DNA of 61,737 nucleotides, the filler included, from a candidate division TA06 bacterium SM23_40 (GTDB lineage: Bacteria; LJUI01; SM1-40), in assembly GCA_001303705.1 (NCBI GenBank). It is 4 parts of 4 records of this genome, joined end to end, with 100 filler letters (N's around TTAATTAATTAA, not from the genome) between each part and the next. Parts side by side here need not be neighbours in the genome. Positions count along the whole stretch, not along the records: positions 1 to 31,276 come from LJUI01000012.1; 3 more parts are not named here. One strand, written 5' to 3'. Positions within the stretch are counted from its first letter, which is position 1. Each line of letters starts with the position of its first letter. Of the stretch, positions 5,267 through 51,705 are shown piece after piece. The notes beneath the pieces are model-generated. The model was not told where the DNA came from and did not search any database. It saw only the letters and a list, made by a program, of their open reading frames with translations. The translations under genes were made by a program, and so were the position numbers.

Positions 5267-5944
5267 CTACGTCTCCCTTCCCGACTCGATCTGCGAGGCA
5301 AGCCAATCGGTCCACCGATCGACTCCCTCGCCGGTGCGGCAGGAAGTTTGGAATATCTGGAGTTGAGCGTTGACCGTAAGCGCTGATTGCCTCGCCTGCT
5401 CGATGTCGAAATCGATACCCTCGACGAGATCAGTCTTGTTGATCACAAGGACGTCTGACTCGCGGAAGGCGAGTGGATACTTCGTGAGTTTGTCGTCACC
5501 CTCAGGCGTGCTCAGTATGGTTACGCGGATATCCTCTCCTAGCCGGTAGTTCGCCGGACAGACGAGGTTGCCGACATTTTCGATAAACAGCACTCTTATG
5601 TCATCGAGGGATAATGAAGAAAGGGCAGCCTTCACCATCCGTGCATCGAGGTGACATGCCCCCCCTGTATTGATCTGAACAGAGGGCACGCCGACCTCAG
5701 CGATACGGCGAGCATCAACGTCGCCCGTGATGTCGCCCTCCACCACGGCGCAGGGATATCGCGGAGTGAGCTGCTCGAGCGTGCGTACGAGAAGACTCGT
5801 CTTCCCCGCTCCCGGCGAGGACATCAGGTCGACGACAAAAATCCCGTGCTTGTCGAACGTCTCCCGGTTCTCTCTCGCCAGCATCTCATTGGCGGCGAGA
5901 ATGTCCCGTACTACCTTGATCTCCACGGCTTCGCCTCCGGACAA
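5267..5944 (-). CDS. hypB: Hydrogenase nickel incorporation GTPase
   Basis: SSPGAGKT, TGGACHLDA, ENVGNLVCPA, EGDDK, NKTD. Confidence 0.95.
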   Translation of the reverse strand: MSGGEAVEIKVVRDILAANEMLARENRETFDKHGIFVVDLMSSPGAGKTSLLVRTLEQLTPRYPCAVVEGDITGDVDARRIAEVGVPSVQINTGGACHLDARMVKAALSSLSLDDIRVLFIENVGNLVCPANYRLGEDIRVTILSTPEGDDKLTKYPLAFRESDVLVINKTDLVEGIDFDIEQARQSALTVNAQLQIFQTSCRTGEGVDRWTDWLASQIESGRET

Positions 5945-5979
5945 ATATGCATCACTCCCCGTCGCTCGCGTCTTCTCTC

Positions 5980-6321
5980 CTATTCCACGTCAAGGGAGAC
6001 TATCGCCAACTCGCGCCCCGTGAGTATCTCAACATCACCAGATTCACACACGCGACAGATGAACTCCCATGCCTCCACCCCCGATTCCGCTCCACAGCTC
6101 CTACACCGGATCGTGAGCGGGATCTCCGTTATCTTCAGCGTGGCGCCCTCGGCGGCCGTACCCTTGCTGGAGATCTCAAACCCAAACTCGAGCGGCTCAC
6201 GCTGAACGCCGCTCATCCGTCCGAGCTGCAGGTTGATCCCAACGACCCTCGAGGCCCCGTGGGCCTGAGCTTCCTCTACGGCCGTTTCCACAATCGATTG
6301 GGCAACCGACAGCTCATGCAC
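5980..6321 (-). CDS. hypA: Hydrogenase maturation nickel metallochaperone
   Basis: GTG start giving MHELSVA; CxxC..CxxC; GREL C-terminus (start moved from 6465). Confidence 0.92.
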   Translation of the reverse strand: MHELSVAQSIVETAVEEAQAHGASRVVGINLQLGRMSGVQREPLEFGFEISSKGTAAEGATLKITEIPLTIRCRSCGAESGVEAWEFICRVCESGDVEILTGRELAIVSLDVE

Positions 6322-6382
6322 GATGAGTACTCCTGGAAGAGAGCCTTCCGGACCGGCGTCCTGTGTGCTCTGGAGAAGCGTC

Positions 6383-7255
6383 TTAGGCGGGGACCCGCTC
6401 TCGCAGTAGCGGCTCTGGATTGACGATATGCTTGCCCAGCGCCAATTCTTTGTGGGACAGCCCAAACGCCAGCCCCATCAACTGGGTAAAGTAGAAGGTG
6501 GGCATGTTGCCGTAGTCAACGCCGTACTTCTCTTCGATCTCGGTGAGACGGGTATCCAGATTCGCATGACAGAGTGGACAGGCGACGGCAATGGCGTCAG
6601 CACCGACCGCCTTCGCCTCGTTGAAGATATCGTTGACCAGCTTTAGCACAATATCTGTCTCAGTGAGCGAGAAGACGCCTCCACAGCATTCAGTCTTGTA
6701 CGACCAATCGACTGTTGGAATGCCGACACTCTGGAGCACTCTATCCATAGTGACCGGGTATTCACAGACATCGAACTGAGCGGCCTTCGGGGGCCTGGTG
6801 AGAAGACAGCCATAGTAGCACGCCACTTTCAGATCCGACAAATCTCGCTTGACATGGCTTCGTAACGTCCCACTATCCACCCGGTCAAACATCTCCAGGG
6901 GATGTATCACGTGGATCTGCCCCTGGAACGAAGATCCGACAACCTCATCAACATCTTTCCTCAGTTCTTCATCCTCCCCGATCTCATATAGAGCAATCTT
7001 GAAGCGGGAGAAACAGGCCGCACACGGAACTACCATCTCCTCCAGCTTGGTGCGTTCAGCAAGCACCAGATTCTTCATCGGCATCGCAAGCGAGAGTAAC
7101 CGAGAGGTCGAATGAGCGGGCGACGTGCCACAGCATAGCCATCCCGGAACCTCTTCGAGCTCAATCCCGAGGCTTTGACAGACGGCCTTGAACGATTCGT
7201 CGAACTCGGTGCCTGTCGAGTGGAGGGAGCATCCTGGGTAGTACGCGTATTTCAT
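6383..7255 (-). CDS. hdrB: Heterodisulfide reductase subunit B
   Basis: Two intact CCG domains: YYPGC..WLCCG..PCAAC and YYGC..ECCG..ACPLC. Confidence 0.93.
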   Translation of the reverse strand: MKYAYYPGCSLHSTGTEFDESFKAVCQSLGIELEEVPGWLCCGTSPAHSTSRLLSLAMPMKNLVLAERTKLEEMVVPCAACFSRFKIALYEIGEDEELRKDVDEVVGSSFQGQIHVIHPLEMFDRVDSGTLRSHVKRDLSDLKVACYYGCLLTRPPKAAQFDVCEYPVTMDRVLQSVGIPTVDWSYKTECCGGVFSLTETDIVLKLVNDIFNEAKAVGADAIAVACPLCHANLDTRLTEIEEKYGVDYGNMPTFYFTQLMGLAFGLSHKELALGKHIVNPEPLLRERVPA

Positions 7256-7830
7256 CTCGTGACCCTCTTTTCCTTCTTCTTGACCCGGGAAAATAGCCGC
7301 CAGGTGGCGATGGTTCTGCCAAGGCTGAGGCTGGGGAGCATCTTCAGTTTTCCTTTTCGCATCATCTTCATGCCCAAGCCCATGTCCTTGAAGAAATCCC
7401 TGGTGAGCATCTTCAGCATCATCATCATCCCGACCTCGTACATCCGCCCGAACAGCCTGATAGTGGTGAGTCCGCTCCTATAGAACGAGGCAACCCCTGG
7501 CACAGGCGGCTGTATCCCACGTCGGCGGGCGATGATCTTCGCAGCATCCATCACTTTCGCGATGTCGACATCCTGCGGACATCGGGTCGTACAGGTCTCG
7601 CATGCTGCACACATCCACATCGTCTTGCTATGAAGGATGAGATCGTCAAGTCCGAGCCGGACGGCGTGGATGAGCTGCGCGGGAGTGTAATCCATCGCGT
7701 AGCTTGTCGGGCAGCCAGCAGTGCATTTGTTGCACTGGAAGCACAAGTTGACGTCGACGCCGCTTTCGAGCTTGAATGCTCTGGCCAGCTCGGAGGTCGG
7801 TGTGACGAGACCTATCGTTGATTCGTTCAT
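7252..7830 (-). CDS. hdrC: Heterodisulfide reductase subunit C
   Basis: CFQCNKCTAGCP and WMCAACETCTTRCP; overlaps hdrB start. Confidence 0.92.
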   Translation of the reverse strand: MNESTIGLVTPTSELARAFKLESGVDVNLCFQCNKCTAGCPTSYAMDYTPAQLIHAVRLGLDDLILHSKTMWMCAACETCTTRCPQDVDIAKVMDAAKIIARRRGIQPPVPGVASFYRSGLTTIRLFGRMYEVGMMMMLKMLTRDFFKDMGLGMKMMRKGKLKMLPSLSLGRTIATWRLFSRVKKKEKRVTR

Positions 7831-8330
7831 TTCGATCCGCCCCCTAGATATCTCTCGTAGATCAGCTTTCCTGCATTACGCACAGCCTCCTGGACCGGTG
7901 GAGAGAGCCCGGGCTCGACCGCATCGGGAATAGTCAGCGGCTGGCAGGCCAGCACGACGACATCGATGTGGCAGAAGTCGTGCAGCTCCTTGAGGAGATT
8001 CGTCGTCGGAATCTGGTGAATCGAGAAATCACTCAGGTTCCGCTCGGGAAAGTCCTCGAGGCTCACCGGGAAGACCTCCCCGGGCTTTCGACCGCAATCC
8101 ACCGTATCGACGACGACGATCCGGCCGGGCCTCTCGTCGGCGAGGGCGATGTCGAATAACACCTCCCTCACGCTACTTCCCACACTCAGAACGCAGACGT
8201 CGTCAGGAATCTCGTAGCTGTCGCTGATGGTCTCCGCCACGGCCGGACCGAAGCCGTCGTCGCCGAACAGTACATTCCCGCAGCCGAGAATGACCGTGGA
8301 CTTGCCACGCCATTCCATCGACCCGTACAT
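7827..8330 (-). CDS. Hydrogenase maturation protease (HycI/HyaD/FrhD family)
   Basis: ILGCGNVLFGDDGFGP, VVVDT, SIHQ; follows the large subunit; start inferred at ATG 8330. Confidence 0.9.
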   Translation of the reverse strand: MYGSMEWRGKSTVILGCGNVLFGDDGFGPAVAETISDSYEIPDDVCVLSVGSSVREVLFDIALADERPGRIVVVDTVDCGRKPGEVFPVSLEDFPERNLSDFSIHQIPTTNLLKELHDFCHIDVVVLACQPLTIPDAVEPGLSPPVQEAVRNAGKLIYERYLGGGSK

Positions 8331-8365
8331 TTCAACCCTCACAACGCGTGAGCTTCCGGCCGCAA

Positions 8366-9808
8366 TCAGCTCGAAAGAGTGTCGATCACCTCGCCCGCGG
8401 CATTTCGGATCTCGATCTTGACAGGAATCGTCCCGTCGAGCTTGTGCGTCGCGCAGGAAAGACACGGATCATAGGCACGGATCGCCATCTCAACACGGTT
8501 CAGGATCCCCTGATCGTACTTGCCGTCTTTGATCAGGGAGGTAGCTGCCTGCTTCACCGACATGTTGATGGGTCCGTTGTTGTGAGTCGTGCCGACGATC
8601 AGGTTACAGTCGGTGATCATACCGTTCTCGTCGGTCTCATAGTCATGGATCAGTGTCCCCCGCGGCGCCTCGGTGCAGCCTACCCCTCGAGCGGCGCGAG
8701 GCTTGACCGGTACCCTGGTCTCCCTGCTGGTGATCTCCGGATCGTTGAGGAGCTGCACAACGAGCTCAGCATTGTACAGGAGCTCAATGAGGCGCGCCCA
8801 GTTGTACAAGAGAGTCTGCTGAGCCGGCCGGCCGAAGTTCTCGCGGAACTCCGCCAGCTCCTGATTCGCGAGCGGTGTGTCGATCTTGTCACAGACATTG
8901 ATACGCGCCAGCGTATTCGTCCGATAGATCCCGACAGGATTGTCGAGATCCATCGAGAAGTTCCCCCATTTCTTGGCGTACGGAAACTTCAGGTAGGTCC
9001 ACGGCTCGATGTGCTCGGCGATGTAGTCCGTATAGTCCTTGTACTCAAACTCCTCGTAGGAACCATCCGGCTTCATCAGTCGCGCCTTCCCATCGTATAG
9101 ATTGAGCCCACCCTCGTCGGTGACGGTGCCCAGGAAGCCGGTAGTGATGACGCCGATTGTCTTCACCGCATCGAGATACTTCGGGAAGAGGCTCTCTTTG
9201 GCAAAGGAGATCGCGAACTTGGCAAACTCGAGCATCTCCTCCGCCATCGGCAAGATCTCATCCCGCTCTTTCTGTGTGAGCGGCTTGCTGAACCCCCCCG
9301 GCACCGCGGTGACAGGATGGATCGACTTGCCAGAGACGACGTGGAGCAGGTGCGCCCCGAGCCAACGCGATCTGACAACCTTCTTCCCGATCTCCGGGTT
9401 CGTCTGAGCGATGCCGATGACGTTTCTCACCGAATAGTCGGCATCAGGACCCATGACGAAGTCCGGACCTGCCAGAAAGAAGAAGTGGAGGATGTGCTCT
9501 TCACAGAATGCTATCGCGTTGCAGAGTTCACGCAGCTTGCGGCCGGCAGGAGGAGGCTCCACCCCGAAGACCACGTCGCACGCCTTGGCCGATGCCAGGT
9601 GATGCGACCAGGGACAGACGCCGCAGATGCTCGTCGTGATGCGGGGCAACTCCTCGACAGGGCGGCCGATACAGAACTTCTCGAACCCCCGGAGCTCCAC
9701 AATCTGGCACATTGCATCAGCCACATTCCCGGCGTCATCGAGCTCAATCGTGACCTTTGCGTGACCCTCCAATCTGGTGACCGGTGCGATCGTTATCGTC
9801 TTGCCCAT
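8366..9808 (-). CDS. mvhA: [NiFe]-hydrogenase large subunit, MvhA type (group 3c)
   Basis: PVTRLEGH, ICGVC (L1), EAPRGTLIH, RAYDPCLSCATH (L2) with cleavable C-terminal tail. Confidence 0.93.
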   Translation of the reverse strand: MGKTITIAPVTRLEGHAKVTIELDDAGNVADAMCQIVELRGFEKFCIGRPVEELPRITTSICGVCPWSHHLASAKACDVVFGVEPPPAGRKLRELCNAIAFCEEHILHFFFLAGPDFVMGPDADYSVRNVIGIAQTNPEIGKKVVRSRWLGAHLLHVVSGKSIHPVTAVPGGFSKPLTQKERDEILPMAEEMLEFAKFAISFAKESLFPKYLDAVKTIGVITTGFLGTVTDEGGLNLYDGKARLMKPDGSYEEFEYKDYTDYIAEHIEPWTYLKFPYAKKWGNFSMDLDNPVGIYRTNTLARINVCDKIDTPLANQELAEFRENFGRPAQQTLLYNWARLIELLYNAELVVQLLNDPEITSRETRVPVKPRAARGVGCTEAPRGTLIHDYETDENGMITDCNLIVGTTHNNGPINMSVKQAATSLIKDGKYDQGILNRVEMAIRAYDPCLSCATHKLDGTIPVKIEIRNAAGEVIDTLSS

Positions 9809-9820
9809 CTTCTTCTCTCC

Positions 9821-10768
9821 TTATCGCTTCGGGAGCGGCCGCAGCCGCTTCTGTGCGCCGATGTACCTGTTCAGCAGCGCCCTTCTATCCTCCACCTGCT
9901 TGGGATCGAGGCCGATGGACGAAATGGCACCGAGCATATCGACCATCGGATTGGCGCCCTTCCGGATGGGGCCGAAACAACCCCGGCACGGCATGTACCC
10001 CTTGACACACCGAGGCACGATCTCCTCGCCCTCTCCCACCATTGACTGGCCGCAGCCGGCTCGCGTCACCGGACCGAGACAGAGGTACCCCTGCTCCATG
10101 AAGCAGCGTGTGTTCTCCCAGGGCCCGTCCTGGTCGAACTGCATATCCTCGAGCAGCCTCTTGATCTGGCCGCCTGCTGCCTTCTTTTCGCGCTTCGTCG
10201 GACACTCATCACAGACACTCCGCTCCGGCAGGTCAAACGGTTTCCCCTCCAGGATCGCGGTGAGCGCGTTGACAATAAGGACCGGTGCCGTCGGGCAACC
10301 CGGAATGTACGCATCGACGTTCACGACCTCATCGATGGCATAGACCCGATCAAGCAATGGCGGTATATTCTCGCTGGGCGTGTCCGCCGCATCGGTCGTC
10401 TTCGACTCCCGATAGACCTTGTCGTATAGCTCTTCGAGCGTCCACATGTTCGCCAGCGCCGGTATGCCGCCGAAGCAGGCACATGACCCGAGGGCAACGA
10501 GGGTCTTACACTTTTTCCTCATCTCTTCGGTCACGTGCTTCTCTTTCTCATTTCTCACACCGCCCGAGATGATTCCCACATCGGCCTCGGGGATCTCCAG
10601 CTCCGTCTTCTCCCCGGTCTGGCCATAATACTTGTGGTCCATGAGCACGGGCATGTGGACGAATTCCAGTTGCGGTAGAAGATCTAGCAACGGTTCCCCT
10701 ATGTCCAGAATCGTCACCTCACATCCGCCGCAGATGTTCAACCACTCTTCTGCCACTTTTGCTGGCAT
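9821..10768 (-). CDS. mvhG: [NiFe]-hydrogenase small subunit, MvhG type
   Basis: CGGC, ALGSCACFGGIP, IPGCP, SVCDECP, CLGPVTRAGC, PCRGCFGP. Confidence 0.92.
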   Translation of the reverse strand: MPAKVAEEWLNICGGCEVTILDIGEPLLDLLPQLEFVHMPVLMDHKYYGQTGEKTELEIPEADVGIISGGVRNEKEKHVTEEMRKKCKTLVALGSCACFGGIPALANMWTLEELYDKVYRESKTTDAADTPSENIPPLLDRVYAIDEVVNVDAYIPGCPTAPVLIVNALTAILEGKPFDLPERSVCDECPTKREKKAAGGQIKRLLEDMQFDQDGPWENTRCFMEQGYLCLGPVTRAGCGQSMVGEGEEIVPRCVKGYMPCRGCFGPIRKGANPMVDMLGAISSIGLDPKQVEDRRALLNRYIGAQKRLRPLPKR

Positions 10769-10791
10769 CTCTCTACCCTCCGCTAACGGTG

Positions 10792-10995
10792 CTACATTGG
10801 TGGCGGACCCTCAACAACCACCTCTGTGACCACCCTCCTCGTGAACAGATAGTGCTTCCTTTCCTCCTCGATCCTTCTCACCTCAAACTCGTCCTTCTCA
10901 TACCCCTCCTGAACCTTCTTCGCCTCTTCCTCGGTCTCGTACGTTGCGCCGTCCCACATGAACTTCTTACCATCGATAACCCGCGCAAGATCCAT
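10792..10995 (-). CDS. Small hypothetical protein between mvhD and mvhG
   Basis: 67 aa, GGAGGTG RBS, packed inside the operon. Confidence 0.7.
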   Translation of the reverse strand: MDLARVIDGKKFMWDGATYETEEEAKKVQEGYEKDEFEVRRIEEERKHYLFTRRVVTEVVVEGPPPM

Positions 10996-11014
10996 AATCC
11001 TGTGATCACCTCCT

Positions 11015-11431
11015 CTATGCTTTGTACGGACTCGGGCCGAGCTCTTTGATCTGCTCTGTCATCTCTGTCACGACCTGAGCAAACTTCTGCCCTTCAGACG
11101 CCGAGATCCACTCCAGGCGGAATCGTTCCGGTTCGAGTCCAAAGTCCTCCAGCATAAGCTCGATGGCCGTTGCTCTATCCTTCGCTTTCTCATTACCTTC
11201 CAGGTAATGGCATTCTCCCAGGTGTCACCCGCAGATGAGGACGCCGTCCGCTCCCTTCGTCAGAGCCTCTATGACCAGATTGGGGTGAATCATACCTGAG
11301 CACATGACCCTGATGATGCGCAGGCTGGGCGGATACTGGACCCTCGAGGTTCCCGCCAGATCTGCCCCCGCATAAGAGCACCAGTTGCATAGGAAGCCAA
11401 GGATGAGAGGTTGGAACTCATCGTTTGCCAT
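11015..11431 (-). CDS. mvhD: MvhD [2Fe-2S] subunit, selenocysteine at codon 69
   Basis: [27 protein letters not shown]-[TGA 11227-11225]-HLGECHY; frame continues through [13 protein letters not shown] to TAG; start overlaps hdrA stop (TGATG). Confidence 0.92.
11191..11209 (-). promoter_or_regulatory. Putative SECIS hairpin of mvhD
   Basis: CATTACCT-GGA-AGGTAATG perfect 8-bp stem, +16 to +34 after the TGA. Confidence 0.65.
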
Positions 11432-14400: not shown

Positions 14401-14685
14401 CCGCGCGAGCAACAGTTCGAGCATGAGGCGCCGCGTCTTGAGGACCCTCTCTGTGTTGGTGCGAACCTCGAGTCCCTCCTGTGCGGGATAGACACAGGAT
14501 GCCTGGATCCTCGATCTCCCGTTTTGCACGAGCTCAACGAGGCAGACGCGACATGCTCCATACGGCGCGAGCGATTTGTGGTAGCATAGGGTCGGAATCC
14601 GTATCCCCAGCTGCTCGCACGCCTCCAGGATAGTCGTCCCCTCCTCCACACTGATCTGCTGGCCATCGATGGTCAGGTTAATCAT
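11431..14685 (-). CDS. NuoG/HydA-type N-terminal Fe-S domain fused to a tandem HdrA-like flavoprotein lacking its first FAD-binding N-terminus
   Basis: IPTLCYH..ACRVC..ASC [2Fe-2S], two CxxCxxCxxxC, then HdrA motifs [57 protein letters not shown]-terminal ferredoxin. Confidence 0.88.
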
Positions 14686-15139
14686 TGCTCTCCCTGTCCC
14701 TTGTATCGAAGTAGTAGATGGAATCGCCCTTCCTATGTTCGAATCGGAGTTCGATCTCCGGCCTACCGGTTATGATTGTGCGTATCGTCTCGTAGATATC
14801 CCCCAAAGGTTTTCTGTCTGGATGGCTATATCGGAAAACTGCCCGTACCTTCGTCCCCTTGCCGGGTCCAGATGCGAGTTGAAGCTCTCCTTCACACTCC
14901 CTGGCGGCCTGCGCGAGGAGGGGCAGCCCTAATCCCACTCTCCTCGTCGTCCTCGTTGTGAAGAACGGATCGAGTGCCTTCTGTTGGGTTTCCGCATCCA
15001 TCCCCTTCCCATCATCCACAATCTCTATCACCAGAAGATCATGCTCGGCATCTTCGTCGATCCTGATTTCGATCGTCTTAGCCGATGCGCTGAGAGAATT
15101 CTCGACTATGTCGAGTATGTGAAGGGAAAGATCCTCCAC
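14678..15139 (-). CDS. Stand-alone HATPase (histidine kinase-like ATP-binding) protein
   Basis: DLSLHILDIVENS, DDGKGM, DPFFTT, VGLGL; no HisKA domain. Confidence 0.85.
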   Translation of the reverse strand: MEDLSLHILDIVENSLSASAKTIEIRIDEDAEHDLLVIEIVDDGKGMDAETQQKALDPFFTTRTTRRVGLGLPLLAQAARECEGELQLASGPGKGTKVRAVFRYSHPDRKPLGDIYETIRTIITGRPEIELRFEHRKGDSIYYFDTRDRESND

Positions 15140-15140
15140 C

Positions 15141-15860
15141 TTAGTGAACTGTCACCTTCCTTCCGTCCTTGTCGAGCAACGCCAGTTCGATCTCGTCGAT
15201 CGTGGCCTCCTCCAGCGTAAACGTCGTAGTGGCCCTTCCGATATCACTCAGAAAATGGGCATCGGAACAGGTGATCACAGGATAGTCCTTCCACGCCTCG
15301 GCGGCCTGCGGACGAGACACCTCCAGGGCATCGAGCCCGAGGGCTGGCGGGATGAAGCCAAGCTGTCCGATGATACTGAACCCTTCTCGATCTACGTGAG
15401 AAGCAATCGCGAGCCCCTGGAGGCGGTGGACCGCCTGAACCACCTCTTCTACCGCAAGCGTCGTAGCCCCGATCAGCAATTTCGTGTTCGATCCTATGAC
15501 CCGGTCATACTCATCGACTATCGTCTGAGGCCCGAACGCCTCCTCGTCGTTTTCCCCCGGCAGGCTGTCGTATACGATACGCTGCATCTCACGCAGGCTG
15601 GCCTCTGTGCGGAACAGCCCAAGGATATGAACTTCCTCGCGCGACGTTATCTCCATACCGGGGATGACGCAAAGCCCCTCACTCTCTCCGGCCCTCGTCA
15701 CAGCATCCACGTTATCCATCGAGTTATGATCACAAATCGCGATTATATCGAGGCCAACCTGCTTCGCCTGTCTTACAATCATCCTGGGGATCATCTCCGG
15801 ATCCGCGCATGGAGAGAGACATGTGTGGAGATGCAGATCTGCACTGAACTCCCTCATCAT
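15141..15860 (-). CDS. PHP-domain phosphoesterase
   Basis: DLHLHTCLSPC, ICDHN, EEVHIL, SHVD, SDAH. Confidence 0.88.
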   Translation of the reverse strand: MMREFSADLHLHTCLSPCADPEMIPRMIVRQAKQVGLDIIAICDHNSMDNVDAVTRAGESEGLCVIPGMEITSREEVHILGLFRTEASLREMQRIVYDSLPGENDEEAFGPQTIVDEYDRVIGSNTKLLIGATTLAVEEVVQAVHRLQGLAIASHVDREGFSIIGQLGFIPPALGLDALEVSRPQAAEAWKDYPVITCSDAHFLSDIGRATTTFTLEEATIDEIELALLDKDGRKVTVH

Positions 15861-16201
15861 CTCGTCCCGGAGATTCCCAGCTCGTAGAGCTTGCCAACGA
15901 CCTCAAACGTCGGCATGTCGGTCACCATGATGGGCATCGCTTCCTGCTCTGCCGCTTCCAGAGTCCCCTCCTCCGGTTCCCTCCCATTGACGAGCACGAT
16001 TCCCGCGAGCTTGTTCATCGAGGCGACCGCCACGATGTTCTGATGAATCTGAAGCGTGATCCAGATATCTCCTTCGTTGCTATTGGCGATCACGTCGCTG
16101 AGGAGATCGCTGGCGTATCCTCCGGTCACGTCTTCGCCAAGCTTTTCTTTCCCGCTTCTAACAGACAGGTCGAGCCGGTCTACTATCTCGGACAGCTTCA
16201 A
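15857..16201 (-). CDS. DRTGG/HPr-kinase N-terminal-like domain protein
   Basis: GGYASDLLSDV, WITLQ.HQNIVAVA. Confidence 0.82.
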   Translation of the reverse strand: MKLSEIVDRLDLSVRSGKEKLGEDVTGGYASDLLSDVIANSNEGDIWITLQIHQNIVAVASMNKLAGIVLVNGREPEEGTLEAAEQEAMPIMVTDMPTFEVVGKLYELGISGTR

Positions 16202-17127
16202 GATCCTCTCCCCTGCTCAGTAAATATGCAGACCTTCAGATGAGTCCCTGATCCGACATCCGAGGTGAGCACCATTTCATCGGCGCACTTCTGGATATTG
16301 TTCAGACCCATACCCGCTCCAAACCCGAGCTCTCTCACCCACTCCGGAGCCGTCGAATACCCCGGCTGCATCGCCTTCTCTACGTCAGGGATACCCGGAC
16401 CCGAGTCCCTCACGTCAACCACGATCTTCTCGGGATCGATCTCGCACGATATCTTGCCCCCCGGCGTGTACACAACCACATTCATCTCCGCCTCATACGT
16501 CGCAATGGCGACCCGGCGGACGATACGGGGATCTATCCCCAGACGCCTCAGCGTTGTCTTCAGCCCGCTGGCACTCTCCCCCGCCCGCTCGAAGTCCTGA
16601 CCGACGACGTCATACTCGAACAAGAGCTTCGTCCGGTCGGCCAGAATGTCCTCAAAGATATGGCTCGCGCGATAGCGATGGATCTCTTCCTCGCTGTAGT
16701 CGATCTCGAGCTTCCTCAGAAGCCCCTCAATAACGAGACCCGCGGTAATGATCCCCACCAGCTCGTTCGTTTCGCGATCGATGACGGGGAACCGGCCGTA
16801 GCCAAGTTGCTCCAGTTTGTTGACAGCGGTCACGAGTGGCTCGTCGGCGTACAGCGTCTTCACATCGCGCGTCATCTTTGCCCCTATGGGGCAATCATCT
16901 TCTCTGTTTGCCAACCACTTGATGAAGTCCTCCAGGCTGATGATACCGACGAGTGCATCGCCCTCTACCACGGGAGCGCCTGAAATCCGATTGACGCGAA
17001 GAATCTCCCTCAGTTCGCTCATCTGGGTAGTCGGTCCGACAGTGATCACTTTTCTCCGCATCACCTCCTGAACCTTCATCTCGTATACGAGTTCTTGAAT
17101 CTTGGTGATCTTCTCGTCTCGATTCAA
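16198..17127 (-). CDS. CBS-pair domain fused to RsbW/RsbT-type Ser/Thr kinase
   Basis: Two CBS repeats, then AGESAS..YEAEMN..DSGPGI..GFGAGMGL. Confidence 0.85.
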   Translation of the reverse strand: MNRDEKITKIQELVYEMKVQEVMRRKVITVGPTTQMSELREILRVNRISGAPVVEGDALVGIISLEDFIKWLANREDDCPIGAKMTRDVKTLYADEPLVTAVNKLEQLGYGRFPVIDRETNELVGIITAGLVIEGLLRKLEIDYSEEEIHRYRASHIFEDILADRTKLLFEYDVVGQDFERAGESASGLKTTLRRLGIDPRIVRRVAIATYEAEMNVVVYTPGGKISCEIDPEKIVVDVRDSGPGIPDVEKAMQPGYSTAPEWVRELGFGAGMGLNNIQKCADEMVLTSDVGSGTHLKVCIFTEQGRGS

Positions 17128-17490
17128 CTAACCACTCTCCGTCGCCTCATAGTCGCCCGGGAGGCCCTCGGTATAGAGCCGGCCACAGGCCTCAAACATC
17201 CGGAACCTGGTTGCGAGCAACGGAATGTTCTTGAGCTGAGCCAGCTTGACGGTCTCATCTGTGGGCTTCTTCCCGCGCACGAAACAGATCGCGACGATAT
17301 CTTGCATCTCTGCCGTTCGCACTGTCTGCTGATTCGTCAGCCCGGTGAGTAAGAGTGAAGCAGGCTTGATGAAGGCGAGGACGTCGCTCATAAGATCGGA
17401 GCCGCAGCCCATCTTGACCCTACGATGCAGAAGATCTTTTCCCACGATGACCTCAGCCTCCAGTACTCTCCTCACGTCCTCGAGAGTCAT
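17128..17490 (-). CDS. DRTGG-domain protein
   Basis: GSDLMSDVL, LLLTGL, VRGKKP, MFEACGRLY; start inferred at ATG 17490. Confidence 0.82.
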   Translation of the reverse strand: MTLEDVRRVLEAEVIVGKDLLHRRVKMGCGSDLMSDVLAFIKPASLLLTGLTNQQTVRTAEMQDIVAICFVRGKKPTDETVKLAQLKNIPLLATRFRMFEACGRLYTEGLPGDYEATESG

Positions 17491-17495
17491 GCTCT

Positions 17496-17678
17496 TCACC
17501 AAGGCTCTCCTCTTTTCCAGTCGACTAGAGCATGTTCGAACTCGCATCGCTCACAACGGTACCATCTCGGACACGGTCTATACGACGACACCCGTGAGCC
17601 CGAGAACTTGCAGAGCTGCCATGCAGCCTTATAGCTCTCGTTTCTCTCCTTCTTTTCTGTATCCGACTCGCCATTCAT
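17496..17678 (-). CDS. Small four-Cys protein, possible metal-binding
   Basis: 60 aa, C..SYRPC..YRCERCEF; fills the gap in the operon. Confidence 0.6.
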   Translation of the reverse strand: MNGESDTEKKERNESYKAAWQLCKFSGSRVSSYRPCPRWYRCERCEFEHALVDWKRGEPW

Positions 17679-17702
17679 GGATTCTCGTCCCCCATCCTGT
17701 GG

Positions 17703-20700
17703 CTATCCGTGAGCTTCGAGATCGCAGCGGAGACAACGCTTTGCCTCAAGTATCGCCATCTCCTTGGTCAGACCAAGCTCTACTTCTTCGTAACTACGCT
17801 TTCTCTGCTCGACCTCCAGCAGCGGCATCTCGGGGCGATCAAGGTTCCGCCCTTCTTCCTCGGCCAGCTTGACCGGTTCGACCTCCATCAACGGCTTGAC
17901 AACGTCATAGGTTCTCTCCAGGCTCTCGCCCCTGAGGAATTTGTGTATGGACTCAGCCGCAAGTTTCCCGTCGCCGATGGAGTTGGTCACGCTGACCGGT
18001 CCGCTCACCACTTCGCCTCCTGCGAAAACGCCATCCTTGTTGGTGGCCAGAGTCTCGGGATCGACGACAAGCGTGTTACTCTTCGAGATCTCGAAATCGT
18101 GCCCCTCGGGCAAGAACGAGAGATCCGGCTCCTGCATGATGACGGGAATGAACGTGTCGGCCTCGATAGTGAACTCAGAGCCCTTTACCGGAACGGGCCG
18201 CCGGGGACCCCGTCCGTTGCCGCCCCGCTTCGCCATCCGCACACACTCTACGCCCTTGACCTTACCGTTTCCTGATACAATCCTGGTCGGCTTTGCCAAC
18301 TCCTCGAGCCGGACGCCCTCAGCCAGTGCAGCACGGATCTCGCCCTCGGGGGCGGCCATCTCCTGGCGACTCCTCCAGAATACAACGAGAACGTCCCTGG
18401 CTCCCAGACGCAGAGCGGTGCGCGCCACATCGATCGCAGCGCTGCTGCCTCCCACGACACAGACTTTCTCGCCGACCTGCGGATTCTCTTTGAGATTGAC
18501 GGCCCGGAGCAGCGCGAGCGGGTCCAGGACGCCATCTACATCCTCTCCTGGTATCCCGAGTTTCCGGCTCTTTCCTGCACCAGTGGCAATGAGGACAGCC
18601 TTGTACCCATCATTGAACAGAGCATCGATATCCCGCACCGGCGAGTCTATCTTGATCTCCACGCCAGTCTTCTTGATGTAGTCGATCTCTCGATCGACGA
18701 GGTCCTTGGGCAGTCTGAATTCCGGAATCCAGACTGAGAGCATGCCACCGGGCACGGGCAGAGCCTCGAAGATCGTGACCGGGTAGCCGCGACGGGCCAG
18801 GAAGTACCCGGCGCTCAGCCCGGCCGGGCCAGACCCGATGATCGCCACCTTCTCCTCATACCGCTGAGGCGGGGGCTTGACCTTCGGCGTCGCACCCGAG
18901 GAACGCTCATAGTCTGCAACGAATCTCTTGAGCGCCCTGATGGCAATCGGCTTACCCCACTCCCCGGCACGGCACTTCAGTTCGCACATCTGAGGACAGA
19001 CGCGTCCACAGACAGCAGGCAGGGGGTTCTTCTCTCTGATCAGCTCCATCGCTTTCTCGAACTCAGCGCGCGCAATCAGCCCGATGTACCCGGCGGCGTC
19101 CTGGTCGAGCGGGCACGAATACTGACAGGGGGAGGAGATGATCTGCTTGCAGACGACAGCCGGACATCTCTTGTACTTGATGTGTGCTTCGTATTCGTCA
19201 CGGAAATAGCGGATCGTGCTCAATACGGGGTTCGGCGCGGTCCCTCCGAGGGCACAGAGCGACGCGTCCTGAATGGCCTGGCCTAGCTCCTCGAGCATTG
19301 CGATATCGCCTTCCTCCCCCTTGCCCTGGCAGATTCGCTCGAGCACCTTCCACATCACCTCGACGCCCTCGCGGCAGGCAGTGCACTTACCGCACGATTC
19401 GTCGCGCAGGAAGTCAGTGAAGTAACGGGCAACGTCAACGATGCATGTCTCCTCGTCCATGACGATCAGACCACCCGAGCCCATGATCGAACCGGCTTCG
19501 GCCAGGCGTTCGTAGTCGATGGGGAGATCGAGAAGCCTCTCGGGAATGCAGCCGCCGGACGGACCCCCTGTCTGGACCGCCTTGAACTTCTTGTCTCCGG
19601 GGATGCCGCCACCGATATCGAAGACGATCTCACGCATGGTGATTCCCATCGGAACCTCTACGAGCCCGGTATTGCGAACCTTTCCGACCACTGAGAAGAC
19701 CTTCGTTCCTTTGCTCGTCTCGGTCCCGATGCTGGCGAACCACTCCCCTCCGCGATTGATGATCTCGGGAACGTTCGCCCACGTCTCCACATTGTTGATA
19801 TTGGTCGGTTCTCCCCAGACTCCCGAATCGACCGGAAACGGCGGCCGAACGCGGGGCTCAGGGGGATTCCCCTCTAGAGAGGCTATAAGCGATGTCTCCT
19901 CGCCACAGACGAATGCGCCTGCCCCCCGCTGCACCTTGACATCAAAGTCGAATCCTGTTCCGAGAATGTCCTCCCCGAGCAACCCATACTCCTTTGCCTG
20001 TTCTATGGCCAATAGCAGCCTTTCCCGCGCGAGAGGGTACTCGTGTCTGATGTAGATGTGGCCCTGGGATGCACCGATCGCCCGCGCTCCAATGAGCATC
20101 CCCTCCAGTACGGTATGAGGATCTGACTCAATGATACTTCGATCCATGAACGCGCCCGGGTCGCCCTCATCGGCGTTGCAGACGATGTGCTTCCGTTCTC
20201 CCTTGGCGCGTCGAGCCAACTCCCACTTCTTCCCGGTAGGGAACCCAGCGCCGCCGCGGCCCCGCAACCCGGACTCCTTGATCTCCTCGATGATCCCCTC
20301 AGGAGTCATCTCGGTGAGAGCCTTGACGAGCGCAGTGTATCCACCGCGAGCGATGTATTCGTCGATCTTCTCTGGATCTATCAGTCCACGATTCCTCAGG
20401 GCGACCAGTCGCTGCTTGCCGAAGAACCCGATATCGGCCATTATCGGCACGGGCATCTCCTCTGCTGGAGGCGTGTACATCAGCTTCTTGACGGGCCGGC
20501 CCTTGAGGAAGTGCTCCTCGACCAGATGAGGTATCTCCTCTTCGGTCAGCAGCTGGTAGAAGATCCCCTCAGGCAGAACATGCATGACCGGCCCCTGGGC
20601 ACAGAACCCGTTGCAGCCGGTCATGACGATCCCAACTTCATGTTCGAGCTCATGCTTCCTCAGCTCGCGCTCCAGGGCTTCCTTTACCTTGAACGACCTA

Positions 20701-20759
20701 TTCGATACGCAGCCCGTTCCTGCGCAGAGCATCAGATGTGTCCTGTATTTCTCCATCAA
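17703..20759 (-). CDS. HydB/NuoF (NADH/FMN) subunit fused to a GltD/NfnB-like flavoprotein domain
   Basis: CAGTGC..GCNGFC, LRGRGGAGFPTG, NADEGDPGAFMDR, GGPSGG, ESCGKCTACR, then CQYSCP, CGRVCPQMC, GSGPAG, RCLRC. Confidence 0.9.
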   Translation of the reverse strand: MMEKYRTHLMLCAGTGCVSNRSFKVKEALERELRKHELEHEVGIVMTGCNGFCAQGPVMHVLPEGIFYQLLTEEEIPHLVEEHFLKGRPVKKLMYTPPAEEMPVPIMADIGFFGKQRLVALRNRGLIDPEKIDEYIARGGYTALVKALTEMTPEGIIEEIKESGLRGRGGAGFPTGKKWELARRAKGERKHIVCNADEGDPGAFMDRSIIESDPHTVLEGMLIGARAIGASQGHIYIRHEYPLARERLLLAIEQAKEYGLLGEDILGTGFDFDVKVQRGAGAFVCGEETSLIASLEGNPPEPRVRPPFPVDSGVWGEPTNINNVETWANVPEIINRGGEWFASIGTETSKGTKVFSVVGKVRNTGLVEVPMGITMREIVFDIGGGIPGDKKFKAVQTGGPSGGCIPERLLDLPIDYERLAEAGSIMGSGGLIVMDEETCIVDVARYFTDFLRDESCGKCTACREGVEVMWKVLERICQGKGEEGDIAMLEELGQAIQDASLCALGGTAPNPVLSTIRYFRDEYEAHIKYKRCPAVVCKQIISSPCQYSCPLDQDAAGYIGLIARAEFEKAMELIREKNPLPAVCGRVCPQMCELKCRAGEWGKPIAIRALKRFVADYERSSGATPKVKPPPQRYEEKVAIIGSGPAGLSAGYFLARRGYPVTIFEALPVPGGMLSVWIPEFRLPKDLVDREIDYIKKTGVEIKIDSPVRDIDALFNDGYKAVLIATGAGKSRKLGIPGEDVDGVLDPLALLRAVNLKENPQVGEKVCVVGGSSAAIDVARTALRLGARDVLVVFWRSRQEMAAPEGEIRAALAEGVRLEELAKPTRIVSGNGKVKGVECVRMAKRGGNGRGPRRPVPVKGSEFTIEADTFIPVIMQEPDLSFLPEGHDFEISKSNTLVVDPETLATNKDGVFAGGEVVSGPVSVTNSIGDGKLAAESIHKFLRGESLERTYDVVKPLMEVEPVKLAEEEGRNLDRPEMPLLEVEQRKRSYEEVELGLTKEMAILEAKRCLRCDLEAHG

Positions 20760-20785
20760 CTGGCTCCCTCTATCTCTCGAACTAT

Positions 20786-21169
20786 CTAGGATACCCGTTC
20801 ACTCCCTATCGCAAGAGCATATTCGGTTACGATCTGGCCGCCGAGTACGTGTTCCTCGAATATCCGGTTCGCCTTCTCCTCAGTGAGATCGATATACTTG
20901 ACAGGAGCCTCTCCCTTGAGCTCGATCGTAGCCATGGGCTCGTGGGCACAGAGACCAGCGCAACCAGACGTGGTGAGGATAATGTCCTTTAACTGCCTCG
21001 CTTCCACCAGACCGAGGAACGCGCTCATGATCTTGCGTGCGCCGGCAGCGATTCCGCACGTCCCCATATGCACAGTGATTTTCGCCCTGGCATCGCCGTC
21101 ACGCAGGCTCATCGTCCTCGCCATCGTCTCCCTGATCCTCTCCAGATCACCAGGCGTCAACTTGGGCAC
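20786..21169 (-). CDS. Thioredoxin-like [2Fe-2S] ferredoxin (HydD/HndB-like)
   Basis: VHMGTCGIAAGAR, SGCAGLCAHEP. Confidence 0.85.
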   Translation of the reverse strand: MPKLTPGDLERIRETMARTMSLRDGDARAKITVHMGTCGIAAGARKIMSAFLGLVEARQLKDIILTTSGCAGLCAHEPMATIELKGEAPVKYIDLTEEKANRIFEEHVLGGQIVTEYALAIGSERVS

Positions 21170-21182
21170 GGTTCACTCTCCT

Positions 21183-22091
21183 CTAGTCCTTGTATCTATC
21201 GAGGAGCGCGACGGCGTCGGCCGCGTTCAGCTTGCCGTAGAGATCGTCTCCTATCGTAATGACGGGAGAGAGACCGCAACACCCGATGCAGCGCACTCCT
21301 TGCAGTGTGAATTGCATGTCCGGCGTCGTTTCGCCTACCTTGATGTCGAGCTCACGCTCGAACCGATCGAGGATCCTACCTGCACCCTTGACGTGACAGG
21401 CAGTACCCAAGCAGACAGTGATGATATGCTTTCCTCTCGGCACCAGGCTGAACGACTTGTAGAAGGTGGCTATCCGCACGATATGTTCAATCGGTATCCG
21501 CTTCGCCTGCGATATACGCACCAGAACGTCGGCGGGCAGCCAGTTGAACTCTTCGCTGATGTCCTGGAGGATCGGAACGAGGACCTCCTGACCGCCGTCG
21601 TATCGGTCGAGAATCTCGTCAACCTTTCCACGCATTGACACATCGAGATCGATCTCCGGCAGGAGGGCGGGCTCGAGATAGGCAAGGTTTCTCACAAGGC
21701 AGTTCTCGACACACTCGCCGCAGCCCGTGCATTTGTCTTCGTCTATGTATCGGGCCTTCCTCCTCACGCGGACCACGAATCTTCCGGCCGCCCCCTCTAC
21801 CTCCTCAACCTCGGAGTAGGCGAGCTTCTCGATATTGAAATGACTCCCGCAATCGACCATCCGGGGAGCAAGCGTACACATGGCGCAGTCGTTGGTGGGA
21901 AAGGTCTTATCCAGCTGGGCCATCACTCCCCCGATCGACGGCCCTCTCTCCACCAGATAGACTTTGTATCCGGAGTCGGCAAGATCGAGCGACGCCTGCA
22001 TCCCTCCGATTCCGCCACCGACGACCATTACCGCCCCGACTTTCTTGTCGCTCCCTTCCGCCGTTTCTTTGCTATCGTTCTCTTCCGCCAT
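21183..22091 (-). CDS. HdrA N-terminal FAD-binding fragment fused to NuoE/HydC [2Fe-2S] domain
   Basis: VGGGIGG, SIGGVMAQLDKTFPTNDCAMC, RYIDEDKCTGCGECVENC, then ATFYKSF, VCLGTACHVKG, RCIGCC; start inferred at ATG 22091. Confidence 0.88.
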   Translation of the reverse strand: MAEENDSKETAEGSDKKVGAVMVVGGGIGGMQASLDLADSGYKVYLVERGPSIGGVMAQLDKTFPTNDCAMCTLAPRMVDCGSHFNIEKLAYSEVEEVEGAAGRFVVRVRRKARYIDEDKCTGCGECVENCLVRNLAYLEPALLPEIDLDVSMRGKVDEILDRYDGGQEVLVPILQDISEEFNWLPADVLVRISQAKRIPIEHIVRIATFYKSFSLVPRGKHIITVCLGTACHVKGAGRILDRFERELDIKVGETTPDMQFTLQGVRCIGCCGLSPVITIGDDLYGKLNAADAVALLDRYKD

Positions 22092-22158
22092 TTGCAGAAC
22101 CTCGTCCCTGTGAGAGTCAGCGCCGGCTACACGCCGGCAGATGCTTATCGCGGACTGC

Positions 22159-22176
22159 TTGTGAATTATTTCACGT
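22159..22176. promoter_or_regulatory. Rex-like operator
   Basis: TTGTGAA-TTAT-TTCACGT versus consensus TTGTGAA-N4-TTCACAA. Confidence 0.7.
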
Positions 22177-22241
22177 AAATTGAGAAGAAAAAACACCCCA
22201 GTCGGGTCGTCGCCCGAGGCTATTTCCTCCGCTCCATACCA

Positions 22242-22270
22242 TTTATACACGTATGCTATTCGGACGTCAA
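22242..22270 (-). promoter_or_regulatory. Putative sigma70 promoter of the redox operon
   Basis: TTGACG-17 nt-TATAAA on the minus strand. Confidence 0.65.
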
Positions 22271-22620
22271 GAAAAATCGACGCCCGAGACGAAGTCGGTC
22301 TCTCGCGCGCGCTCCAGCCCTTGCTCAGCCGGGCAGGCGGCCGCCCAAGGAACGGCAAGAAGGCTCTCTCTACGGCAACCCCGCCCCCGAACAGGGCGCC
22401 CCATATCCACCAATCCCGGCCCTATGTCACCGGGAATACATGACTTATCTTGATCGTGGTACTGCCAGATCCCGTGCGCAGCGCCGGCTCCAGTAGCCTT
22501 CCAGGTCCCGACAGTCCCCAAAACGACCCGACAAGATCCGACAATCTTCCACTATAATTTAACACAACAGGACGGACGCAGGTTCCTCACGCCCCTCAGC
22601 CGCCTGGACAGCCCTTTCCG

Positions 22621-31276: not shown

Positions 31277-31376
31277 NNNNNNNNNNNNNNNNNNNNNNNN
31301 NNNNNNNNNNNNNNNNNNNNTTAATTAATTAANNNNNNNNNNNNNNNNNNNNNNNNNNNNNNNNNNNNNNNNNNNN
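31277..31376. other. Artificial contig linker
   Basis: N run, TTAATTAATTAA six-frame stop, N run. Confidence 0.98.
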
Positions 31377-41446: not shown

Positions 41447-41546
41447 NNNNNNNNNNNNNNNNNNNNNNNNNNNNNNNNNNNNNNNNNNNNTTAATTAATT
41501 AANNNNNNNNNNNNNNNNNNNNNNNNNNNNNNNNNNNNNNNNNNNN
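41447..41546. other. Artificial contig linker
   Basis: N run, TTAATTAATTAA, N run. Confidence 0.98.
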
Positions 41547-51605: not shown

Positions 51606-51705
51606 NNNNNNNNNNNNNNNNNNNNNNNNNNNNNNNNNNNNNNNNNNNNTTAATTAATTAANNNNNNNNNNNNNNNNNNNNNNNNNNNNNNNNNNNNNNN
51701 NNNNN
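51606..51705. other. Artificial contig linker
   Basis: N run, TTAATTAATTAA, N run. Confidence 0.98.

Follow-up and report, generated by a model that had tools for sequence, protein, structure and literature searches.

A Predicted Enzyme Complex Joining an Mvh-Type [NiFe] Hydrogenase, a Split Tandem HdrA and a HydBC-Type NAD(P)H Module in Candidate Division TA06 Bacterium SM23_40

Closest Described Systems

Mvh-type (group 3c) hydrogenases and HdrABC genes are frequent in bacterial metagenome-assembled genomes (MAGs) from sediments, soils and digesters. We know of no established partners or substrates for these enzymes outside the methanogens. The subject of this report is a cluster of 18 genes in candidate division TA06 bacterium SM23_40 (GenBank assembly GCA_001303705.1) that combines an Mvh-type hydrogenase and HdrABC homologues with an NAD(P)H module of the HydBC-type family, referred to here as Bfu. 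The window, which is the whole stretch of DNA analysed (61,737 nucleotides), contains runs of N at 31277-31376, 41447-41546 and 51606-51705 that separate contigs C35, C37, C38 and C39, and adjacency across these runs is artificial. The cluster lies wholly on contig C35. The source MAG comprises 2.88 Mb in 189 contigs and is 89.8% complete, with an estimated contamination of 1.3%.

The closest known system is the Bam[(BC)2DEFGHI]2 complex of Geobacter metallireducens, a class II benzoyl-CoA reductase (BCRII). Coupling of a HydBC-type and an HdrA-type unit was proposed for this complex, also called Bam-Bfu (PMC9304861), and has been shown structurally in a cryo-electron microscopy preprint (10.64898/2026.04.10.717634), where BamI and BamF link the HydBC-type module with a fused HdrA dimer. 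Only the first of the two fused HdrA units in BamE is judged to be bifurcating, and a Cys59-Cys62 pair is placed on the low-potential path (10.64898/2026.04.10.717634). We infer that this pair corresponds to the NDCxxC motif discussed below. The preliminary description of the TA06 locus had pointed to this reductase (BamB-I) as a precedent for HdrA working with NuoEFG-like subunits, and the comparison is apt. Both systems have a HydBC-type module (BamGH) and a short BfuA (BamI; PMC9304861, 10.64898/2026.04.10.717634), as well as a fused HdrA dimer (BamE), an HdrBC-like high-potential exit (BamD) and an MvhD-like adaptor with a selenocysteine (Sec19 in BamF, a predicted one in the window). They differ in that the tungsten-pterin subunits BamBC are absent among the 18 open reading frames (ORFs) of the cluster, none of which has an aldehyde-oxidoreductase-type match with Pfam or NCBIfam; an Mvh-type [NiFe] hydrogenase is encoded instead. 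In addition, the window HdrA has a split FAD domain 1, one half being joined to NuoE and the other to BfuA. HdrB, with its two CCG motifs intact, is encoded separately from HdrC, and HydB carries a GltD-type domain in place of the ferredoxin-like one.

The MvhAGD-HdrABC and Vhu-Hdr complexes of methanogens (5ODC, 8RVU, 9SFI) provide the best matches for MvhA, HdrA and MvhD, and they share with the window intact HdrB and HdrC motifs and the occurrence of the same families in one cluster. In contrast to the methanogen enzymes, where HdrA is one polypeptide with one FAD domain, the window HdrA is tandem, permuted and split. Moreover, an NAD(P)H module is built in, and the host is a bacterium without known CoM-S-S-CoB. 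A HydBC core serving a [NiFe] hydrogenase, as in the window, is found in NiFe-HydABCSL of Acetomicrobium mobile (7T2R; Bfu type 3), but there a full-length HydA (692 amino acids, aa) bridges to HydSL, whereas in the window HdrA and MvhD take the place of the bridge, with HdrBC as a further component. HdrL and HdrABC/HdrL of Desulfobacterota (D. autotrophicum, S. fumaroxidans) have a tandem HdrA with a GltD-type domain followed by MvhD (PMC2702500, PMC5947623). In HdrL the GltD domain is inserted in HdrA, whereas the same site in the window is occupied by NuoE, a ferredoxin, NuoF-GltD, five signalling genes and the BfuA-like domain, distributed over separate genes. Finally, NfnABC and StnABC (9N5U, 9BOV, 8OH5) resemble the window in placing a GltD-like NADP(H) domain on a HydBC core, but in those enzymes GltD is part of BfuA, whereas in the window it forms the C-terminal part of HydB, in the position of the ferredoxin-like domain.

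Every single module of the cluster is already known. The hydrogenase version of the assembly, the HdrA split with its reciprocal fusions, the replacement of the ferredoxin-like domain of HydB by GltD, and the signalling cassette are apparently new. A literature search, which did not take in the Bfu clade tables or the Appel et al. 2021 review, brought up neither an Mvh-Hdr-HydBC cluster nor a split HdrA.

A Split Tandem HdrA Fused to Parts of the Bfu Module

The HdrA of the cluster is distributed over the 302-aa product of the first gene (AE) and a 1084-aa scaffold protein (GHdrA). BfuC (NuoE/HydC-like) and a BfuA-type N-terminus are both present, each fused to one of these HdrA pieces. Domains were assigned with Pfam and NCBIfam profiles, and chains of the Protein Data Bank (PDB) were matched by sequence search. 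Residues 20-139 of AE match HdrA 146-258, which is the N-terminal half of the thioredoxin-reductase-like FAD domain, while residues 156-302 constitute a NuoE/HydC-like [2Fe-2S] domain that matches HydC (8a6t_C). The HdrA part of AE holds a dinucleotide-binding GGGIGG, an NDCAMC motif (DKTFPTNDCAMC) and one CxxCxxCxxxC motif. Invariant columns were read from alignments of 25 sequences each for AE and GHdrA, and in AE they include GxGxxG, NDCAMC and C121/124/127/131.

GHdrA begins with a BfuA/NuoG-like N-terminus (residues 1-185) that has one [2Fe-2S] and two [4Fe-4S] clusters and lacks an H-cluster domain. Residues 2-181 match BfuA of the WOR-Bfu complex (9mqx_A, E 5e-40), a chain identified as a short BfuA via PMC12318220, and also match HydA N-termini. 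The His-ligated NADH-G_4Fe-4S_3 domain was not found in GHdrA with Pfam, in contrast to the BfuA proteins scanned from loci of the signalling cassette. The C-terminal half of HdrA FAD domain 1 follows at residues ~186-517 (164-431 match HdrA 246-498 of 5odc_A), and then an HdrA N-terminal domain at 518-650 (518-752 match HdrA 2-237), a second HdrA FAD domain at 660-~1000, and a C-terminal domain with two [4Fe-4S] clusters at 1005-1084 (902-1079 match HdrA 475-648). A second near-complete HdrA therefore sits behind the C-terminal two-thirds of the first one. The second FAD domain lacks both NDCxxC and the inserted ferredoxin domain; GxGxxG and the Lys of CCxxAxK are retained in it as well.

From the match ranges of AE and GHdrA on HdrA, the two pieces of FAD domain 1 abut at HdrA ~246-258, inside the inserted ferredoxin domain. 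This domain is broken such that one of its cluster motifs lies on each polypeptide. In GHdrA, C225/233/236/240, C323/334/338/339 and K344 are invariant. Based on these sequence relationships, it is very likely that the pieces on AE and GHdrA form one FAD domain and that the HydBC-type module and HdrA belong to one complex. MvhD with MvhAG, and HdrBC, are added to it on the grounds of homology and synteny. The prediction of one physically joined complex can be made with good confidence.

The NAD(P)H Module

Residues 1-542 of the 1018-aa NuoF/HydB-GltD protein form a HydB/NuoF-like FMN/NADH subunit, of which residues 4-542 match HydB of A. mobile (7t2r_B 3-541, E 8e-232). Pfam profiles identify the FMN/NAD(H) site (Complex1_51K, E 2.8e-46) and the NuoF-type [4Fe-4S] cluster (NADH_4Fe-4S, E 2.9e-33), as well as an N-terminal thioredoxin-like [2Fe-2S] domain at residues 6-82 (2Fe-2S_thioredx; Cys 12, 17, 49 and 53). 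The two HydB motifs given in the preliminary description are in place, NADEGDPGAFMDR at residue 195 and GGPSG at residue 398.

Residues 543-1013 are a GltD/NfnB-like region with two [4Fe-4S] clusters, FAD and an NAD(P)H site, matching NfnA (9n5u_A) 105-594 and 9bov_A 102-567. Aligned to HydB from a related locus (L007), a canonical protein of 597 aa, this region starts directly after KRCPAVVCK and occupies the position of the ferredoxin-like C-terminal domain. The ferredoxin-site domain of BfuB in the Bfu family, which has two [4Fe-4S] clusters, is thus absent in the window copy. NuoF has the GltD form in 16 of 36 related clusters and the canonical form in 20, and even sister clusters (L006 and L007) differ in this respect. 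Ferredoxin is accepted by the C-terminal domain of HydB in HydBC-type enzymes (10.64898/2026.04.10.717634), and HydB proteins without that domain have been reported to be non-bifurcating (10.1101/2024.08.04.606487; PMC11406978). The preliminary description counted ferredoxin among the coupled partners; its coupling at HydB is doubtful for the window copy since the ferredoxin-like domain has been exchanged for GltD. The 127-aa ferredoxin encoded between AE and HydB has only three Cys residues and occurs in 33 of 34 assessable relatives.

The Hydrogenase, MvhD and HdrBC

VhuA, VhuG and the VhuD/HdrA2 C-terminus are the best NCBIfam models for MvhA, MvhG and MvhD, respectively, with all scores under the equivalog cut-offs. 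For MvhA, VhuA is followed by ShyA (168 bits) and FrhA (154 bits), and the ranking of PDB chains is VhuA (9sfi_g, 1e-127), A. mobile HydL (7t2r_D, 1e-125), MvhA (5odc_F, 3e-122) and HoxH (5xf9_D, 1e-109). The pairs of NiFe ligands are found in CGVC (62-65) and CLSC (449-452), the latter followed by a C-terminal extension for proteolytic maturation.

The mvhD gene is interrupted by an in-frame TGA at codon 69 in the context ICG-U-HLGECHY. This codon probably specifies selenocysteine, a reading suggested by homology and by the tRNA-Sec and SelA genes, both of which are encoded in the MAG. A local 8-bp hairpin follows the TGA, where a selenocysteine insertion sequence was looked for, and the 71-nt fold was no better than those of shuffled sequences (z 0.0). 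The residue is Cys in 43 of 45 relatives and TGA in two, with 23 sequences judged by eye from translations.

HdrB is defined by two CCG motifs. Both are complete in the window protein, and HdrC has two CxxCxxCxxxC motifs (motif search). The 67-aa protein encoded between mvhD and mvhG is kept in 38 of 45 assessable relatives and may be an extra subunit or an assembly factor.

Organization of the Gene Cluster

All 18 ORFs are on the minus strand and together span 5267-22091 (Table 1). Neighbouring genes overlap or are no more than 61 bp apart at 16 of the 17 junctions; only the NuoF-GltD gene and the first DRTGG gene are separated more widely, by 155-212 bp. Non-coding DNA extends for 529 bp in front of the cluster. 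The promoter-like site there was not listed by the consensus scan because the scan demands a T at position 6 of the second hexamer. Inside the cluster the same scan, which covers sigma-70-type signals only, found five promoter-like sites where 6.0 were expected and five terminator-like sites where 9.3 were expected. The sigma-54 pattern had 22 matches in the window as compared with 17.5 expected, and none in the upstream region 22092-22620. An Rfam scan of 1-31276 found no family at its gathering score. The 18 genes most likely constitute one transcription unit, predicted from sequence to encode one soluble iron-sulfur flavoprotein complex together with maturation and control proteins.

The preliminary description had reported 18 co-oriented, tightly packed genes and was accurate in this and in the kinds of genes that it listed, and the internal promoters and terminators that it named as a refuting condition were not in excess in the consensus scan. 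Several of its assignments need to be modified. The HydA-like N-terminus without an H-cluster exists as a domain, not as a free-standing gene, since it forms the first 185 residues of GHdrA. HdrA, HdrB and HdrC are all present, but HdrA is tandem and split, and its N-terminal half is fused to NuoE/HydC. Likewise, HydB-, HydC- and HydD-like subunits occur, with the qualification that HydB has a GltD-type domain instead of the ferredoxin-like one, and MvhAGD is complete apart from the single TGA in mvhD. Five of the 18 genes encode signalling-type proteins rather than redox subunits.

Table 1. Features of the hydrogenase-Hdr-Bfu cluster, in the direction of transcription
Feature	Position	Strand	Basis or remark
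Promoter-like site TTGACG-17 nt-TATAAA	22242..22270	-	~150 nt upstream of first gene; near-consensus; read by eye
HdrA(N-half)-NuoE fusion (AE), 302 aa	21183..22091	-	Pfam, NCBIfam, PDB
Thioredoxin-like ferredoxin (HydD/HndB-like), 127 aa	20786..21169	-	NCBIfam 2Fe-2S ferredoxin, E 1.2e-7
NuoF/HydB-GltD fusion, 1018 aa	17703..20759	-	Pfam, PDB
DRTGG	17128..17490	-	Pfam, NCBIfam
CBS-CBS-HATPase, SpoIIAB-like (E 3e-14)	16198..17127	-	Pfam, NCBIfam
DRTGG (second)	15857..16201	-	Pfam, NCBIfam
PHP phosphoesterase	15141..15860	-	Pfam, NCBIfam
HATPase	14678..15139	-	Pfam, NCBIfam
NuoG/HydA-N-terminus-HdrA fusion (GHdrA), 1084 aa	11431..14685	-	Pfam, PDB
MvhD, [2Fe-2S] adaptor with in-frame TGA	11015..11431	-	NCBIfam
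67-aa protein, no family	10792..10995	-	no Pfam or NCBIfam match
MvhG, small subunit, 315 aa	9821..10768	-	NCBIfam VhuG, 229 bits
MvhA, large subunit, 480 aa	8366..9808	-	NCBIfam VhuA, 467 bits; PDB
Hydrogenase maturation endopeptidase (FrhD/HycI type)	7827..~8330	-	Pfam, NCBIfam; start codon inferred
HdrC	7252..7830	-	Pfam, NCBIfam, motif search
HdrB	6383..7255	-	Pfam, NCBIfam, motif search
HypA	5980..6321	-	NCBIfam TIGR00100, above cut-off
HypB	5267..5944	-	NCBIfam TIGR00073, above cut-off

Conservation Among Relatives

A scan of one genome per species yielded 164 relatives of GHdrA, from which 80 loci were kept. Fifty of these carry a BfuA-like N-terminus on the scaffold protein, and counts are given as present/assessable. 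According to phylum labels as deposited, which were counted by hand from record titles, the 50 loci include 26 from Planctomycetota (under various names), 10 from Gemmatimonadota and 7 from Bacteroidota, one each from Nitrospirae, Aegiribacteria, WOR-3, Deltaproteobacteria and Desulfobacterales, and two without a label. The counts are 34/34 for NuoF, 33/33 for NuoE, 31/31 for the HdrA N-piece, 45/48 for MvhD, 25/30 for MvhA, 25/31 for MvhG (plus one divergently oriented locus), 20/26 for HdrC and 19/26 for HdrB. The synteny check across MAGs put forward in the preliminary description thus shows co-localization kept in 50 loci under many phylum labels. Together with the two gene fusions, these loci bear out, at the level of sequence, the core inference of that description, namely that Mvh/Hdr and a HydBC-type NADH module belong to one unit. 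The locus does not consist of MvhAGD-HdrABC next to HydABC, however; it encodes a rebuilt scaffold with a split tandem HdrA.

In 19-20 of 26 assessable relatives the hdrCB genes precede AE, whereas in the window they come downstream, behind the protease gene, so they have been rearranged yet retained. Bacteroidota-labelled loci lack HdrBC. A gene for a QmoC-like membrane protein precedes the first gene in both Bacteroidota loci that were scanned (L040:2905-4098 and L048:2793-3990), at 197-200 bits where the equivalog cut-off is 300, and its place in the HdrCB slot suggests a quinone-linked variant and would agree with a high-potential exit at this point of the complex. HypA and HypB are outside the conserved core, seen in three and one of the 80 loci, respectively.

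The other 30 loci include HdrL-like single chains (HdrA N-piece, GltD, then the rest of HdrA), mostly from Desulfobacterota, Aminicenantes and WOR-3, tandem HdrA without an insert (L055, L057, L073), and cases in which the N-terminal part is lost to a contig end or falls under the coverage cut-off (e.g., L038, L041, L045, L054). The single-chain HdrL-like form accounts for about 25 of the 80 loci and is found also on contigs C98, C176 and C86 of the same MAG. A second scan with the Bacteroidota form as the query gave at least 614 relatives, with full-length forms in MAGs labelled Acidobacteriota, Aminicenantes, Actinomycetota, Verrucomicrobiota, Fidelibacterota and others; among the matches listed, all 79 of 79 loci were from MAGs. 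A maximum-likelihood tree of 49 full-length scaffold proteins (quick mode, SH-aLRT support) largely tracks the phylum labels, and the window GHdrA is on a long branch (0.34) as sister to a clade labelled Gemmatimonadota and Planctomycetota.

Some related clusters contain genes for a sensor histidine kinase and receiver-only regulators (L001:13948-15923; L013:14146-14550 and 17139-19240; L010:15529-17395; L040:16327-18049). These inserts are located between the gene for the 67-aa protein and mvhG or between mvhA and the protease gene, and none is present in the window.

Proposed Electron Path and Alternative Arrangements

The reading that is modestly favoured here is that one complex couples H2, a disulfide and NAD(P)(H), with HdrA-type and HydBC-type bifurcation modules hard-wired to each other. 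For such a complex, the following electron path and substrates are put forward tentatively, based on the structures of methanogen Mvh-Hdr and on the BCRII preprint (10.64898/2026.04.10.717634). H2 would be oxidized at the NiFe site of MvhAG, and MvhG and MvhD would relay the electrons to the FAD bound by the split domain, which is the sole one with NDCxxC. HdrC would conduct the high-potential electron to HdrB, whose two non-cubane clusters would transfer it to an unspecified disulfide; in the Bacteroidota-labelled relatives, the QmoC-like protein would hand it to quinone. The low-potential electron would go by way of the composite ferredoxin domain into the BfuA-like clusters and then into the HydBC core. 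NAD+ would be reduced at the FMN of HydBC and, in the window copy, NADP+ at the GltD-type FAD domain. The overall reaction may proceed either way.

This path implies that two unlike bifurcating machines, one built on an HdrA-type flavin and the other on a HydBC-type FMN and iron-sulfur core, operate in series with the low-potential exit of the first feeding the second, which is conceivable though on balance doubtful. Series wiring is favoured to the extent that it is because the inserted ferredoxin domain, through which the low-potential electron leaves in Hdr and BamE, is split here with a Bfu fusion on either side. Several observations weigh against it or against the joint complex as a whole. 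The HdrA flavin of BCRII receives electrons from a HydBC module on its input side (10.64898/2026.04.10.717634), so the order of the fusions may not reflect the electron path. Because the Lys of CCxxAxK is kept in the second FAD domain, only NDCxxC separates the two flavin sites. The window HydB is without the ferredoxin-like C-terminal domain, a mark of non-bifurcating homologues, and the gap of 155-212 bp could hold an internal promoter. Finally, no DsrC was found in the MAG (89.8% complete), and there is no obvious disulfide substrate for HdrB.

An alternative arrangement, considered rather unlikely, is that the wiring resembles that of BCRII and is directed toward H2. In this arrangement, HydBC would confurcate electrons from NADH and a second donor (ferredoxin in canonical relatives, NADPH here) and feed the HdrA flavin through MvhD, with the high-potential electron going to HdrBC and the low-potential electron to external ferredoxin. 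The enzyme would then support fermentative H2 evolution, or H2 and NAD(P)H would be interchangeable mid-potential donors. The BCRII structure itself points this way, having its HydBC module on the input side, connected via the C-terminal ferredoxin domain and MvhD (10.64898/2026.04.10.717634). That a NiFe module can serve a HydBC core is illustrated by NiFe-HydABCSL of A. mobile (PMC8880783), whose large subunit is matched by the window MvhA with an E-value of 1e-125 (7t2r_D). No [FeFe] hydrogenase was found in the MAG (89.8% complete), so the complex could be the cell's route for disposal of NADH, and the signalling cassette of the window also accompanies [FeFe] HydABC operons (7 of 13 BfuA ORFs scanned). 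The position of the break is harder to reconcile with this arrangement, as the interruption of HdrA and both Bfu fusions are located at the inserted ferredoxin domain, from which the low-potential electron departs in Hdr and BamE. HdrB, moreover, keeps a complete disulfide-reducing site for which a plain confurcating hydrogenase would have no need.

It is improbable that the locus encodes a non-bifurcating, Hox-like NAD(P)+-reducing hydrogenase in which HdrA and MvhD are mere wires and HdrBC has a side role or a redox-sensing role. Such an enzyme would account for the window HydB, since absence of the ferredoxin-like domain is a hallmark of non-bifurcating homologues (PMC11406978; 10.1101/2024.08.04.606487), and some HdrABC enzymes outside methanogens are thought not to bifurcate (PMC5861303). 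It would leave unexplained why, across 25 sequences under several phylum labels, FAD domain 1 shows no variation in NDCxxC, in its FAD-site Lys or in any of its cluster ligands, why 20 of 36 relatives have a HydB of the canonical bifurcating type, and why the slot for HdrBC or QmoC has been kept. The explanation that Mvh-Hdr and an NAD(P)H oxidoreductase are independent enzymes encoded by genes that only happen to be neighbours would be compatible with the internal gap of 155-212 bp and with the lack of hydrogenase genes in a few related loci (L056, L060, L062, L075). This explanation is very improbable and is close to refuted by the fusions, as HdrA FAD domain 1 and the Bfu module are each incomplete without polypeptides that bear parts of the other; the order of the genes is, in addition, kept in 50 loci.

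The favoured reading of one joint complex offers a concrete and testable wiring of H2, thiol/disulfide or quinone, and NAD(P)(H) in one enzyme. Should the series wiring be right, reduction of a disulfide or quinone could drive the formation of NAD(P)H from H2 at very low partial pressure in bacteria of many phyla, with reduced ferredoxin as a further product of the canonical variants, which would give group 3c hydrogenases a long-sought role in non-methanogens. The exchange for GltD would then retune the output from ferredoxin to NADPH. On the same condition, bifurcation modules would be stackable parts, extending to hydrogen metabolism an idea that came from benzoyl-CoA reductase, and the use or production of H2 near thermodynamic limits would find an explanation.

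The Signalling Cassette

The five genes at 14678..17490 on the minus strand encode, in order, a DRTGG protein, a CBS-CBS-HATPase, a second DRTGG protein, a PHP protein and a HATPase, in which no redox motifs and no DNA-binding domain were found with Pfam and NCBIfam. They are probably regulators rather than redox subunits, and probably tune activity or expression to the energy or redox state. The cassette genes are kept in 37-43 of 39-45 assessable relatives. A scan for the CBS-HATPase gave at least 590 relatives, of which 80 loci were kept. A NuoE or NuoF gene is located no more than 7 kb away in 61 of these, 12 with HdrA pieces and 49 HdrA-free. Among the 13 BfuA ORFs scanned from those loci, the six that are not [FeFe] HydA are of the molybdopterin type. 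Since the cassette is near many Bfu loci that are free of HdrA, it appears to be a general companion of HydBC/Bfu-type operons. In two loci of Anaerolineales-labelled MAGs (L103 and L115), DRTGG and CBS-HATPase genes are beside MvhG-, MvhA- and protease-like genes, with no NuoE or NuoF within 7 kb. A literature search found no paper joining the terms DRTGG, hydrogenase and PHP. The CBS/DRTGG/HATPase/PHP cassette would represent an unstudied control system that travels with many Bfu-type operons.

Flanking Genes, a Second Copy and Other Hdr Loci

The cluster is flanked by a gene for a weak match to a PorV-like outer-membrane protein (22621-23580, minus strand) and by the bacillithiol synthesis gene BshC (3179-4816, minus strand; E 1e-104), and neither is kept beside related clusters. 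The proximity of BshC hinted at bacillithiol as the substrate of HdrB, a candidate that was ruled out because BshC is found in no related locus. DsrC was likewise dropped as a candidate since its gene was not found in the MAG.

A truncated, putatively paralogous copy of the cluster is present on contig C64 (1-9497), where it comprises the end of GltD, the five-gene cassette, the fused HdrA, MvhD and the start of MvhG. The scaffold protein encoded there shares 69% identity with the window GHdrA, and its MvhD has Cys at the selenocysteine position. The G+C content of C64 equals that of the window contig, and the C64 copy nests within the Gemmatimonadota-labelled clade.

The organism is rich in Hdr-type enzymes. 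The MAG has 17 HdrA-like matches to the scaffold protein and 19 hits to the CCG domain. Loci of the HdrA type on contigs C98, C176, C86, C12, C171, C46 and C124 encode HdrL-like chains and tandem HdrA and MvhD sets with HdrBC, and C124 also carries a stand-alone set of NuoE, NuoF and a short NuoG.

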